From NCBI RefSeq assembly GCF_003334385.1, contig NZ_QOWN01000081.1: DNA of 5,545 nt; one strand, 5' to 3'. The stretch's first letter is position 1. Each line of letters begins with the position of its first letter. This DNA is from Escherichia coli. GTDB lineage: Bacteria; Pseudomonadota; Gammaproteobacteria; Enterobacterales; Enterobacteriaceae. The position numbers and the translations under genes were made by a program. Below, piece by piece: positions 1 to 5,545 of this stretch. A model generated the notes under the pieces. It did not search any database. It worked only from the letters and a program-made list of their open reading frames with translations, and was not told the DNA's origin.

Positions 1-1
1 T

Positions 2-77
2 TGGTGGGTCGTGCAGGATTCGAACCTGCGACCAATTGATTAAAAGTCAACTGCTCTACCAACTGAGCTAACGACCC
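2..77 (-). tRNA. lysV: tRNA-Lys (anticodon UUU), 76 nt including encoded 3' CCA
   Basis: Reverse complement of 2..77 reads GGGTCGTTAGCTCAGTTGGTAGAGCAGTTGACTTTTAATCAATTGGTCGCAGGTTCGAATCCTGCACGACCCACCA. This gives a cloverleaf with anticodon loop CUUUUAA (anticodon UUU), a T-arm GGTTCGAATCC and a terminal CCA. It matches the E. coli tRNA-Lys sequence as I recall it. Position in the Val-Lys operon beside gltX suggests lysV. Confidence 0.93.
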
Positions 78-80
78 GAG

Positions 81-156
81 TGGTGGGTGATGACGGGATC
101 GAACCGCCGACCCCCTCCTTGTAAGGGAGGTGCTCTCCCAGCTGAGCTAATCACCC
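81..156 (-). tRNA. valU: tRNA-Val (anticodon UAC), 76 nt including encoded 3' CCA
   Basis: Reverse complement of 81..156 reads GGGTGATTAGCTCAGCTGGGAGAGCACCTCCCTTACAAGGAGGGGGTCGGCGGTTCGATCCCGTCATCACCCACCA. The anticodon stem-loop is CCUCC-CUUACAA-GGAGG (anticodon UAC), with T-arm GGTTCGATCC and terminal CCA. Only 3 bp (78..80) separate it from tRNA-Lys. The symbol is uncertain: it is the promoter-proximal copy (valU position) but also the copy directly abutting lysV (valY position in K-12 as I recall). Confidence 0.92.
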
Positions 157-173
157 CCGCTGTGTGGAGTCGC

Positions 174-201
174 ATTATAGGGAGAGTTCAAAATGAGTCA
201 A
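174..201 (-). promoter_or_regulatory. sigma70 promoter of the tRNA-Val/Lys operon, stringent-type
   Basis: Minus-strand reading gives TTGACT (201..196), a 16-nt spacer, TATAAT (179..174), then the GC-rich discriminator GCGACTCC. The mature tRNA-Val 5' end lies 17 nt downstream of the -10. An A/T-rich stretch upstream (about 203..245) could hold UP-element or Fis sites. Confidence 0.7.
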
Positions 202-321
202 CGCATTTTCTAAAGAAATTGTTCGTTCGTCGTAAATTTAAGCAAGATGATCGCAAAACAGACCGTGTTGCGCAATTTGTCAACGAAAACAATAATGCGT
301 AAGGTAGAAACCCGAACTACA

Positions 322-349
322 TTGAGGAATCAGGCGGGAGTGATAGAAT
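322..349 (+). promoter_or_regulatory. candidate gltX promoter (one of possibly several)
   Basis: TTGAGG (322..327), a 16-nt spacer, then TAGAAT (344..349) preceded by an extended -10 TG at 341..342. The predicted start near 356 would give a roughly 58-nt leader to the gltX ATG. An alternative candidate is AATAAT at 291..296. From memory, gltX has multiple promoters; none can be confirmed from sequence alone. Confidence 0.35.
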
Positions 350-414
350 ATCGCCCACTTAATTTTTCCAGGATTTGCCGGTTGTCGGCATCTTTCTAAA
401 CGTAAGGCCATTTC

Positions 415-2823: not shown

Positions 2824-2855
2824 GCCGCCCGTCAACTCGACAAGCTTTACGTGAC

Positions 2856-2931
2856 GGGGCTATAGCTCAGCTGGGAGAGCGCTTGCATGGCATGCAAGAG
2901 GTCAGCGGTTCGATCCCGCTTAGCTCCACCA
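2856..2931 (+). tRNA. alaW: tRNA-Ala (anticodon GGC), 76 nt with encoded CCA
   Basis: GGGGCTATAGCTCAGCTGGGAGAGCGCTTGCATGGCATGCAAGAGGTCAGCGGTTCGATCCCGCTTAGCTCCACCA. The anticodon loop is AUGGCAU (anticodon GGC). The G3:U70 wobble pair, which is the alanine identity element, is present (acceptor stem GGGGCUA / UAGCUCC). This is the promoter-proximal copy. Confidence 0.95.
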
Positions 2932-2970
2932 AATTTTGCACCCAGCAAACTTGGTACGTAAACGCATCGT

Positions 2971-3046
2971 GGGGCTATAGCTCAGCTGGGAGAGCGCTTG
3001 CATGGCATGCAAGAGGTCAGCGGTTCGATCCCGCTTAGCTCCACCA
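2971..3046 (+). tRNA. alaX: tRNA-Ala (anticodon GGC), 76 nt with encoded CCA; identical to the upstream copy
   Basis: A 76/76 identical repeat of the 2856..2931 tRNA, separated from it by a 39-bp spacer (2932..2970). Confidence 0.95.
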
Positions 3047-3055
3047 AATTTCCAA

Positions 3056-3081
3056 CCCTCGCTGCAAAGCGGGGGTTTTTT
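3056..3081 (+). terminator. intrinsic terminator of the alaW-alaX operon
   Basis: Stem CCCTCGC (3056..3062) pairs with GCGGGGG (3069..3075) over 7 bp, including one G-U pair, around a 6-nt loop TGCAAA. It is followed by TTTTTT (3076..3081) and sits 10 nt after the alaX CCA. Confidence 0.8.
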
Positions 3082-3254
3082 GTCTCTGCTTTTTGCCGCT
3101 TTTGTAATACAGTCTACGTCCGGGTTAGTGCCGCCTGGTGAAAGCATCATTGGATGAAAAATCGGCAACAGGCTGGCCCCCTGTTTGCTTCGCGATGCGA
3201 ATAAACTTATTATTTGTGTGCCTGAAAACCCCGATCAGTGAGAGTAGTGTACTC

Positions 3255-5444
3255 ATGTTTGTGGAGCATAACCTGATAAAAAATATCAAGATATTCACAC
3301 TAGCGTTTACGCTCACCGTGGTACTTATTCAGCTATCCCGTTTTATTTCGCCACTTGCCATTATCCATTCCAGTTATATCTTTCTGGCGTGGATGCCACT
3401 GTGCGTAATGCTGTCAATCTTGTTTATCTTTGGCTGGCGCGGTGTCGTTCCCGTTTTATGCGGGATGTTTTGCACCAATCTGTGGAACTTTCATCTCTCT
3501 TTTTTACAGACTGCGGTCATGCTCGGTAGCCAGACGTTTGTCGTGTTGTGTGCCTGCGCAATATTACGCTGGCAGCTGGGGACGCGTTGGCGTTATGGAT
3601 TGACCAGCCGATATGTCTGGCAACGTCTGTTCTGGCTTGGTTTGGTGACGCCGATCGGCATCAAATGCAGCATGTATCTTGTGGGGAGCTTCTTTGATTT
3701 CCCGCTAAAGATATCCACCTTTTTCGGCGATGCGGATGCCATTTTCACGGTCGTTGATTTGCTAAGCCTTTTCACCGCTGTGCTGATTTACAACATGCTT
3801 TTCTACTATCTCACTCGCATGATTGTAAGTCCCCACTTTGCGCAGATATTGTGGCGCAGGGATATCGCTCCGTCGTTGGGCAAAGAGAAACGCGCATTTA
3901 CCTTAAGCTGGCTGGCAGCGTTAAGCGTGCTGCTACTTCTGTTGTGCACACCTTATGAAAACGACTTTATTGCCGGTTACCTGGTACCCGTTTTCTTCAT
4001 CATCTTTACCCTCGGGGTCGGTAAGCTTCGCTATCCGTTTTTAAATCTCACCTGGGCTGTTTCAACGCTTTACCTTCTGAATTACAACCAGAACTTTTTG
4101 CAAGGGGTGGAAACCGAATATTCGCTGGCATTTATTCTTGCGGTGCTGATTTCCTTTAGCGTTTGCCTGCTCTATATGGTGCGCATTTATCATCGCAGTG
4201 AATGGCTTAATCGCCGCTGGCATTTGCAGGCGCTGACAGATCCGTTAACGCTCCTACCCAACTTTCGTGCGTTGGAACAAGCGCCGGAGCAAGAGGCGGG
4301 CAAGAGTTTTTGCTGCCTGCGCATTGATAATCTTGAGTTTATGAGTCGTCATTACGGCTTAATGATGCGCGTTCACTGTATCCGCTCAATTTGCCGTACG
4401 CTGCTGCCGTTGATGCAGGAAAACGAAAAGTTGTATCAATTGCCGGGTAGTGAACTGCTGTTAGTGCTGAGCGGGCCGGAAACGGAAGGGCGACTCCAGC
4501 ATATGGTTAACATCCTGAATAGTCGGCAAATTCACTGGAACAATACCGGGCTGGATATGGGCTATGGTGCTGCCTGGGGGCGTTTTGATGGAAATCAGGA
4601 AACCCTGCAACCCTTGTTGGGGCAGTTAAGCTGGCTGGCGGAGCAATCCTGCGCACATCATCATGTGCTGGCGCTGGATAGCAGAGAGGAGATGGTTTCC
4701 GGGCAGACCACTAAACAGGTGCTATTGCTGAATACCATTCGCACGGCGTTAGATCAGGGTGATTTGCTGCTCTACGCCCAGCCAATTCGCAACAAAGAGG
4801 GTGAAGGTTATGATGAGATCCTCGCGCGACTGAAATATGACGGCGGCATTATGACCCCGGATAAGTTTCTGCCCCTTATTGCTCAGTTTAACCTTAGCGC
4901 GCGTTTTGATTTGCAAGTGCTGGAATCCTTGTTGAAGTGGCTGGCAACACACCCTTGCGACAAAAAAGGACCGCGCTTTTCAGTCAATTTAATGCCGCTC
5001 ACGCTGCTGCAAAAGAATATTGCCGGGCGGATTATTCGTCTGTTTAAGCGTTATCACATCTCCCCGCAGGCGGTCATTCTTGAGATCACCGAGGAGCAGG
5101 CGTTTTCTAACGCAGAAAGCAGCATGTACAACATCGAGCAGCTGCATAAGTTTGGTTTCCGGATTGCGATTGATGACTTTGGCACCGGATATGCCAACTA
5201 CGAACGGTTAAAGCGTTTGCAGGCTGATATCATCAAAATTGATGGCGTCTTTGTGAAAGATATTGTCACGAACACGCTGGATGCGATGATTGTGAGATCA
5301 ATTACCGATCTGGCGAAAGCGAAGTCATTGAGTGTGGTCGCGGAGTTTGTCGAGACGCAACAGCAGCAGGCGCTATTGCATAAGCTCGGGGTGCAATATC
5401 TGCAAGGGTATTTGATTGGTCGCCCGCAGCCATTAGCTGATTAA
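3255..5444 (+). CDS. pdeA: c-di-GMP phosphodiesterase: N-terminal multi-pass membrane (MASE-type) domain, degenerate GGDEF domain, EAL domain; 729 aa
   Basis: The long ORF ends at TAA 5442..5444. I chose the ATG at 3255 (MFVEHNLIKNIK...) because it gives the 729-aa length I recall for E. coli PdeA/YfeA. The frame is open back to a GTG at 3138 and an ATG at 3195, so the start is uncertain. The N-terminal roughly 320 aa are strongly hydrophobic, consistent with multiple transmembrane segments. The middle domain resembles GGDEF but has PGSEL (nt 4443..4457) where GG[DE]EF is expected. The C-terminal domain carries EAL-type motifs: EIL at 4815..4823 in place of EAL, plus EITEE, DDFGTGYA, KIDG, EFVE and QGYL. 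Confidence 0.88.
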   Translation: MFVEHNLIKNIKIFTLAFTLTVVLIQLSRFISPLAIIHSSYIFLAWMPLCVMLSILFIFGWRGVVPVLCGMFCTNLWNFHLSFLQTAVMLGSQTFVVLCACAILRWQLGTRWRYGLTSRYVWQRLFWLGLVTPIGIKCSMYLVGSFFDFPLKISTFFGDADAIFTVVDLLSLFTAVLIYNMLFYYLTRMIVSPHFAQILWRRDIAPSLGKEKRAFTLSWLAALSVLLLLLCTPYENDFIAGYLVPVFFIIFTLGVGKLRYPFLNLTWAVSTLYLLNYNQNFLQGVETEYSLAFILAVLISFSVCLLYMVRIYHRSEWLNRRWHLQALTDPLTLLPNFRALEQAPEQEAGKSFCCLRIDNLEFMSRHYGLMMRVHCIRSICRTLLPLMQENEKLYQLPGSELLLVLSGPETEGRLQHMVNILNSRQIHWNNTGLDMGYGAAWGRFDGNQETLQPLLGQLSWLAEQSCAHHHVLALDSREEMVSGQTTKQVLLLNTIRTALDQGDLLLYAQPIRNKEGEGYDEILARLKYDGGIMTPDKFLPLIAQFNLSARFDLQVLESLLKWLATHPCDKKGPRFSVNLMPLTLLQKNIAGRIIRLFKRYHISPQAVILEITEEQAFSNAESSMYNIEQLHKFGFRIAIDDFGTGYANYERLKRLQADIIKIDGVFVKDIVTNTLDAMIVRSITDLAKAKSLSVVAEFVETQQQQALLHKLGVQYLQGYLIGRPQPLAD

Positions 5445-5545
5445 CAGGCGTAAAAAAACCGGGGAATTATCCCATAAGCGCTAACTTAAGGGTTGTGGTA
5501 TTACGCCTGATATGATTTAACGTGCCGATGAATTACTCTCACGAT

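Follow-up and report, generated by a model that had tools for sequence, protein, structure and literature searches.

IS186, an insertion sequence (IS), has GGGG-N6-CCCC as its preferred target, according to passages of PMC6925257 that cite Chong 1985 and SaiSree 2001. In Escherichia coli K-12 MG1655, a copy catalogued as IS186C (insL3, b2394) lies between nupC and pdeA. Here we describe a computational analysis of 5,545 nucleotides of E. coli DNA (assembly GCF_003334385.1, contig NZ_QOWN01000081.1), a stretch that is referred to at its full length as the window and that ends between the same two genes. An earlier note, made from the sequence alone, had read the entire window as conserved core genome and had stated that it contains no transposase and no inverted-repeat termini. 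Our analysis indicates, with a probability of about 0.95, that the window is ordinary annotated E. coli core chromosome followed by 73 bases that open a known IS, at a site already recorded for it. With equally high confidence, its content is lysV/valU-type tRNA genes, gltX, yfeD-yfeC, alaW-alaX and pdeA, and then the left end of IS186/IS421.

Results

The right edge of the window is an IS186/IS421 end

The window was compared by megablast with 5426 complete E. coli genomes, all of which it matches. In at least 5082 of these genomes, 80% or more of the window (typically bases 79/81-5473) is matched at a single place, and in most genomes the matches stop at 5473. Bases 5460/5469-5545 match features named "IS4-like element IS421/IS186B family transposase" in many places on chromosomes and plasmids. 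In strain TUM14664 (L004) the element is 1339 bp long and has a perfect 23-bp inverted repeat at each end; window positions 5473-5545 are identical to its first 73 bases. These last 73 bases of the window are the end of the mobile element IS186/IS421. The features at this edge are as follows.

5452-5472, no strand assigned: left half of the bidirectional pdeA/nupC terminator that the IS splits, comprising the A-run, CCGGGG arm and AATTAT loop (from comparison with the empty site)
5473-5495, plus strand: CATAAGCGCTAACTTAAGGGTTG, the terminal inverted repeat on the left of IS186/IS421; the same 23 bp form both ends of the TUM14664 element and the ends of the annotated K-12 IS186C
5496-5527, plus strand: stretch of IS186/IS421 that separates the inverted repeat from the start of the transposase gene (identity to TUM14664)
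5528-5545, plus strand: first six codons of an IS4-family transposase of the insL type, cut by the window end (RefSeq coding sequence start in L001 and L004)

The last of these features reads ATG AAT TAC TCT CAC GAT (MNYSHD), and the RefSeq coding sequence starts at the equivalent base in ETEC1730 (L001) and in TUM14664. The TUM14664 transposase, 370 amino acids long, scores 133.3 bits with the IS4-family model NF033592 (cut-off 115); the window holds its codons 1-6 only. Because this open reading frame (ORF) leaves the window at its end, the transposase was missed in the mechanical ORF list. A target-site duplication, GGAATTATCC, stands on both sides of the element in TUM14664 and in K-12, and measures 10 bp, or 12 bp with an ambiguous C/G end base. 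The window carries the left copy only, at 5463-5472, and a repeat search found no second IS inverted repeat within the window. A complete insertion would be expected to continue for ~1266 further IS186/IS421 bases, ending in CAACCCTTAAGTTAGCGCTTATG, followed by GGAATTATCCCCGGCTTTTTT and nupC.

Junction queries of 146 nucleotides were used to count the states of the pdeA/nupC site in the same 5426 genomes.

4428 genomes: site empty
465 genomes: IS present in the window orientation
479 genomes: IS present in the opposite orientation, that of K-12 IS186C

By the earlier note's own terms, its reading fails if part of the window is absent from most conspecific genomes or matches a mobile family. 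This is the case for 5473-5545, an IS186/IS421 end that occurs here in this orientation in only 465 of 5426 genomes, with the site empty in 4428. The two orientations do not differ in their junction bases or in the duplication. All three states are found on flanks 100% identical to those of the window, the site being empty in H4 and H5, occupied in the opposite orientation in K-12 and occupied in the window orientation in STK78-E. Such an arrangement would be expected if the IS inserted repeatedly at a palindromic hot spot.

Insertion splits a terminator common to pdeA and nupC

The empty-site sequence between pdeA and nupC is AAAAAAACCGGGGAATTATCCCCGGCTTTTTT, and an empty-site genome reads ...TAACAGGCGTAAAAAAACCGGGGAATTATCCCCGGCTTTTTTATG... 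between these convergent genes. In L003 the empty site is CCGGGGAATTATCCCCGG, which fits a GGGG(N6/N7)CCCC target; the stem-loop at the site is GGGG-AATTAT-CCCC. The empty site forms a hairpin of -23.2 and -22.6 kcal/mol on the two strands (z -5.9 and -5.8), preceded by an A-run and followed by a T-run. Given these runs and the folding on both strands, it is therefore a bidirectional intrinsic (Rho-independent) terminator common to pdeA and nupC. On insertion, the loop is duplicated together with the two stem bases at either side of it, such that one stem arm is left to each gene. The remnant in the window (5445-5500) gives a fold of -9.3 kcal/mol, which does not surpass that of shuffled sequence (z +0.7), and a scan of the window detected no terminator-like site after 5444. 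The IS split has thus removed the pdeA terminator hairpin from the window. The earlier explanation of the intergenic regions by promoters and terminators stands elsewhere, but not after pdeA, where the native hairpin is split and no terminator is left. A promoter-like match across the junction (5441-5470, 9/12) was set aside as chance level, with 10 sites found against 6.2 +/- 2.7 expected.

The family of the element suggests entry by IS4-type DDE cut-and-paste transposition. A staggered cut of 10 bp (12 bp with the ambiguous end base) would have been made inside the GGGG-AATTAT-CCCC stem-loop, duplicating the loop and leaving pdeA and nupC each with half a stem. In the window allele, the transposase gene is co-directional with pdeA. 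Because the terminator is split and the transposase gene runs in the same direction, unterminated pdeA transcripts would be expected to enter the IS in the sense direction in the window allele; the anatomy of the K-12 allele predicts antisense entry, and nupC transcripts would probably enter the IS from the other side. The fold of the pdeA-to-IS read-through leader is only modest (z -2.0; 5 of 200 shuffles fold as well), and for this reason we claim no translational masking. As a side observation, the nine bases after the pdeA stop codon, CAGGCGTAA (5445-5453), are complementary to TTACGCCTG in the IS end (5501-5509). Their pairing in a read-through transcript would enclose the terminal repeat and is probably due to chance, the overall z being only -2.0.

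The pdeA/nupC hairpin could be a recurrent IS186 hot spot whose split couples IS186 activity to pdeA-inducing conditions, with occupancy and orientation going together with phenotype, a proposal that we consider quite unlikely. If it were true, the 3' ends of the pdeA and nupC mRNAs, and hence their stability, would be altered in ~17% of strains, and transcription of pdeA would be sense to the transposase gene in the window allele and antisense to it in the K-12 allele.

Bases 1-5472 are conserved core genome

Genomes of the K-12 lineage are 100% identical to the window over 1-5495, apart from a tRNA junction described below, with the same gene content and order; the match breaks at 5495 because IS186C lies in the opposite orientation. 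The whole window is 99.9-100% identical to strains such as ETEC1730, TUM14664 and STK78-E, and the RefSeq annotations of these loci agree. To extend the comparison across genera, species-representative genomes were scanned with a YfeC+YfeD alignment, which yielded 23 loci from Escherichia, Citrobacter, Lelliottia, Kluyvera, Enterobacter, Huaxiibacter and other Enterobacteriaceae. The order nupC, pdeA, tRNA-Ala (two copies in most), yfeC, yfeD, gltX, tRNA-Val genes and tRNA-Lys is kept in 23/23, as far as the contigs reach, which bears out the conserved synteny that the earlier note had predicted. None of the 23 loci contains an IS186-type transposase. The ratio of non-synonymous to synonymous substitution rates (dN/dS) is 0.01-0.18 across the four protein-coding genes, which are under purifying selection. 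GC content is 0.49 overall and 0.46-0.53 per gene, and this comparison, also suggested earlier, gave no sign of foreign DNA over 1-5472. The claim of conserved core without a novel or accessory system accordingly stands for 98.7% of the window (bases 1-5472; at least 5082 of 5426 genomes, 23/23 loci and dN/dS) and falls for 5473-5545. All genes of the window are already annotated in K-12, and nothing here was unknown before. The features of this part are as follows.

2-77, minus strand: tRNA-Lys(UUU), last gene of a valU-type tRNA operon (ARAGORN; Rfam tRNA, 79.2 bits)
81-156, minus strand: tRNA-Val(UAC) (ARAGORN, Rfam)
174-201, minus strand: promoter-like site for the Val/Lys tRNA operon, TTGACT-16-TATAAT (consensus scan 11/12; a pattern match only)
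415-1830, plus strand: gltX, glutamate--tRNA ligase (GluRS), 471 amino acids (TIGR00464; motifs; RefSeq annotation gltX)
1848-1876, both strands: bidirectional intrinsic terminator common to convergent gltX and yfeD (scan and folding)
1882-2274, minus strand: yfeD, YfeC-like helix-turn-helix (HTH) DNA-binding protein, 130 amino acids (PF07037, HTH_17)
2276-2635, minus strand: yfeC, HTH transcriptional regulator, 119 amino acids (PF07037)
2795-2823, plus strand: promoter-like site for the alaW-alaX tRNA operon, TTGACA-17-TATGAT (consensus scan 11/12; a pattern match only)
2856-2931, plus strand: tRNA-Ala(GGC) copy 1 (ARAGORN, Rfam), part of the 88-nucleotide direct repeat D1
2971-3046, plus strand: tRNA-Ala(GGC) copy 2 (ARAGORN, Rfam, repeat search)
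3054-3077, plus strand: intrinsic terminator that closes the tRNA-Ala operon (10-bp stem, then a T-run; -17.2 kcal/mol, z -3.7)
3255-5444, plus strand: pdeA (yfeA), membrane cyclic di-GMP (c-di-GMP) phosphodiesterase (Pfam, motifs)

The four tRNAs (Lys-UUU, Val-UAC and two Ala-GGC), GluRS, the c-di-GMP phosphodiesterase and the two small HTH proteins had all been named in the earlier note, and each identification is confirmed. In line with the K-12 annotation, a divergent promoter region serves the tRNA operon and gltX. The convergent gltX and yfeD have a hairpin terminator in common (11-bp stem with T-runs on both strands; -19.5/-17.8 kcal/mol, z -7.1/-6.7), yfeC-yfeD form an operon of two paralogous HTH regulators, and the tRNA-Ala operon has its own promoter and terminator.

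At a permissive threshold, Rfam returned only the four tRNAs from the window, other matches falling far below gathering scores. The repeats detected in a search of the window were limited to the tRNA-Ala duplication, similarity between tRNAs and terminator palindromes, with no CRISPR-like or tandem array. PADLOC was applied to the four genes and to five more ORFs (a 366-amino-acid ORF antisense to gltX and four shorter ones), and NCBIfam on the window proteins; no defence family was found above threshold, in agreement with the earlier view that CRISPR repeats and defence-like ORFs are missing. PADLOC gave YfeC and YfeD only weak mad1 HTH matches (23-24 bits) and the other seven ORFs none. The score of 20.6 bits for the MADS component NF047737, against a cut-off of 80, is a sub-threshold HTH resemblance only. 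The 366-amino-acid ORF (280-1380, minus strand) has no family or defence match and is unannotated in every record examined; we therefore regard it as a shadow ORF, produced by codon bias in the gene opposite. The ORF at 247-399 was rejected as a gene, with stop codons in Citrobacter, Lelliottia and Enterobacter. It is intergenic, neither antisense to a gene nor on a tRNA, and in this minor point the description of the remaining ORFs as antisense or overlapping tRNAs needs amending.

GltX satisfies the equivalog model TIGR00464 with 704.9 bits (cut-off 289.95) and carries the signature motifs HVGG at 16, KLSKR at 237 and the Cys/His zinc motif CxC...CxH at 98. Pfam divides PdeA into MASE1 (amino acids 16-315), degenerate GGDEF (326-423) and EAL (493-724) domains. 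Its EAL domain (PF00563, E 2.7e-59) contains EILAR, SVNL, EITE, DDFGTGY, KID, EFVE and QGY, and by these motifs PdeA is an EAL c-di-GMP phosphodiesterase whose catalytic and metal-binding residues are intact. The GGDEF domain is matched weakly and only in part (E 7.4e-4, model positions 1-109 of 161). Because the EAL motifs are all present but GSELL replaces GGDEF, "phosphodiesterase" is right and the PGAP name "bifunctional cyclase/phosphodiesterase" is unsupported, PdeA having neither a GG(D/E)EF motif nor a full GGDEF domain. The same residues as in the window PdeA are tabulated for yfeA of CFT073 (PMC3484386). The pdeA product would thus be a MASE1-sensor EAL phosphodiesterase with a degenerate GGDEF domain. 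Its Salmonella orthologue, YfeA, is needed for the 5-oxoproline-induced fall in c-di-GMP and aggregation (PMC9509341).

Inspection of yfeC and yfeD reveals that the yfeC stop codon lies 1 nucleotide before the yfeD start. YfeD matches PF07037 at full length (E 1.1e-63, model positions 1-122) and HTH_17 (4.9e-7); YfeC matches PF07037 over the same model positions (E 4.5e-51), and both proteins have an N-terminal HTH. The two are 38% identical (E 3e-27) and are paralogous DNA-binding proteins fixed in the core genome. YfeC has 50 ChIP-exo binding sites on the chromosome, acting mostly as a repressor, and its knockout is viable (PMC8464067). The pair remains under-characterised, as the earlier note had said.

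Several side observations concern these genes. The yfeC start differs by record (2621-2635): PGAP places it at an ATG at 2635, giving 119 amino acids, and the K-12 reference 15 nucleotides downstream, giving 114. Rates among neighbours are uneven across genera (L012-L029 compared with window 1882-2635 and 3255-5444), with identities of 92-95% for GltX, 90-98% for NupC, 68-86% for YfeC, 44-72% for YfeD and 49-70% for PdeA. Within the pair, YfeD diverges much faster (44-56% identity) than YfeC (68-75%). Three tandem YfeC-like genes occur in Enterobacter sp. BIGb0383 (L022), and in Escherichia sp. MOD1-EC7003 (L010) the YfeC match is only 38 amino acids long.

Alternative readings

Some points weigh against the reading of core chromosome joined to a real IS insertion. 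The window ends 73 bases into the IS, and the completeness of the copy, its right end and the second duplication are deduced from genomes with an identical junction, one of which, ETEC1730, has a frameshifted transposase. The genome collection is rich in laboratory K-12 derivatives, and the count of 479 is inflated by clones. Read-through from pdeA and nupC into the IS is predicted from hairpin loss alone. Taken literally, the earlier note would make the whole window core, including 5445-5545, with the last intergenic stretch as the pdeA terminator region. Bases 1-5473 are indeed core, and K-12 carries IS186 at the same site, so that the sequence is familiar from K-12. The site is nevertheless empty in 4428/5426 genomes, 5473-5545 matches IS421/IS186B elements in many other places on chromosomes and plasmids, no terminator is left after pdeA and the IS is in 0/23 cross-species loci; the IS identity of these bases and the mostly empty site refute the literal version, to which we give virtually no credence. 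An assembly artefact, in which the contig stops in or joins through a repeat and no real insertion exists, would suit a window with repeated DNA at both ends (the tRNA-Lys gene on the left, the IS on the right), as is presumably typical of short-read contig ends. Such an artefact is extremely unlikely, since the junction is base-for-base identical to 465 finished genomes with the full element and both duplication copies. A further question is whether the two orientations arose from independent insertions or from flipping of one ancestral insertion, by excision and re-insertion or by recombination. Flipping would account for the exact sharing of junction bases and duplication and for the K-12 and window flanks being 100% identical over 5.4 kb. 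Against this, H4 and H5 are empty on 100% identical flanks, the palindromic GGGG-N6-CCCC target should accept either orientation, and independent insertions need no extra assumption. To our knowledge, no in-place inversion reaction has been described for IS186, and we consider flipping unlikely.

The proposal that yfeC/yfeD form a type II toxin-antitoxin (TA) module would also change the content of the window, which the earlier note had described as free of TA-like pairs. RASTA-Bacteria listed yfeD/yfeC in 2007 as a high-confidence TA candidate (PMC2374986), and the pair resembles such modules in being two small, adjacent, co-directional genes, 1 nucleotide apart, the first with an HTH as in many antitoxins; weak HTH-level matches to YdaS_toxin (E 0.005-0.097) point the same way. 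Unlike the partners of a type II module, the two proteins are full-length PF07037 paralogues, neither with a toxin fold, a distinct toxin domain or a significant toxin-family match. Their distribution is not patchy or mobile-associated: the pair is fixed between gltX and tRNA-Ala in 23/23 cross-genus loci, with dN/dS of 0.06-0.10. It is absent from 50,697 phage records (tblastn, with no match for YfeD), and its 13 "plasmid" matches are mostly chromosome-sized records. The viable yfeC knockout and the regulatory binding of YfeC to 50 chromosomal sites (PMC8464067) also speak against a toxin-antitoxin function. A TA module is therefore very unlikely and was rejected; adjacency fits, but the paralogy, the lack of a toxin domain, the fixed position and the lack of mobile association decide for a regulator pair. 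Resemblance of YfeC and YfeD to PHROGs families (DNA-binding protein, small terminase, excisionase; E 1e-9 or weaker) was likewise put down to a generic HTH, with no support from the phage tblastn search.

Other insertions and the tRNA array

Although yfeD is intact in the window, it is interrupted in 171 of the 5426 genomes by an IS4321/IS5075-type element (IS110/IS1111 family, 1328 bp; example L005 2958-4285). The insertion point on the coding strand, GGAAAACG|GAAAAATTTCC (window ~2167-2169), resembles the Tn21-family terminal repeat targeted by elements of this type. Because it is interrupted by an IS in these 171 genomes, yfeD is dispensable in nature. A literature search found no paper on IS4321 in yfeD; a parallel is offered by accidental ureC::IS5075 insertions in Klebsiella (PMC8269217). 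In ERL05-0623, an IS200/IS605 element whose tnpA is partial and whose TnpB is intact lies between gltX and yfeD, in or beside their common terminator hairpin (L006 2490-4131, equivalent to window ~1835-1880). In different lineages, this one 5.5-kb block thus carries three IS families at sites that are hairpins or resemble repeats.

The tRNA array to the left of gltX is polymorphic, as a comparison of window 1-156 with L002 8432-8829, L005 502-947 and L030 766-1223 reveals. Three Val genes and one Lys gene are present in K-12 and most genera, two Val in ETEC1730, one Val in TUM14664 and Val-Lys-Val-Lys in STK78-E, where the 135-nucleotide inner spacer is nearly identical to the K-12 lysT-to-valT spacer. 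The window stops 1 nucleotide past the tRNA-Lys gene and shows only that part of the array. The flank upstream of tRNA-Val (157-300) is identical to the region that precedes valU in K-12. The Val-CTC-Lys junction of the window equals that of K-12 valZ-lysY, in the other Lys/Val operon, and not that of valY-lysV (CTTC). These arrays suggest that the two Lys/Val tRNA operons have exchanged sequence by recombination or gene conversion.

Discussion

The practical value of this analysis is a correction. A verdict that nothing mobile is present was wrong at the window edge, where the 23-bp terminal repeat by itself betrays the element. The biological significance is small, as the genes are annotated in K-12 and the IS186 at the site is catalogued. 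That said, the site is a clean natural example of IS186 in a terminator stem-loop fitting GGGG-N6-CCCC, in both orientations and on otherwise identical backgrounds. A literature search found no paper on IS186 at nupC/pdeA.

Among the resident genes, PdeA is built like the other E. coli MASE1 c-di-GMP enzymes, YfgF/PdeF and DgcE, with a MASE1 membrane sensor followed by GGDEF and EAL. YfgF is like PdeA also in having a degenerate GGDEF and intact EAL residues (PMC3484386). As to signal input, the 5-oxoproline response has been tied to Salmonella YfeA (PMC9509341). The K-12 counterpart of the block reads valU-valX-valY-lysV / gltX / yfeD-yfeC / alaW-alaX / pdeA, with three tRNA-Val genes and a CTTC spacer, whereas the window shows a single tRNA-Val and CTC.

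The closest described counterpart of the insertion is IS186C of K-12, which belongs to the same family and has the same insertion point, 23-bp inverted repeats and duplication. It differs in orientation, with its transposase gene converging on pdeA rather than running co-directionally with it as in the window. An IS186 insertion at lon uses the same target class as the GGGG-AATTAT-CCCC found here, according to passages of PMC6925257. In contrast to lon, where those passages describe disruption of the promoter, the insertion at the pdeA/nupC site, which is used recurrently and in both orientations, splits a terminator common to two convergent genes.

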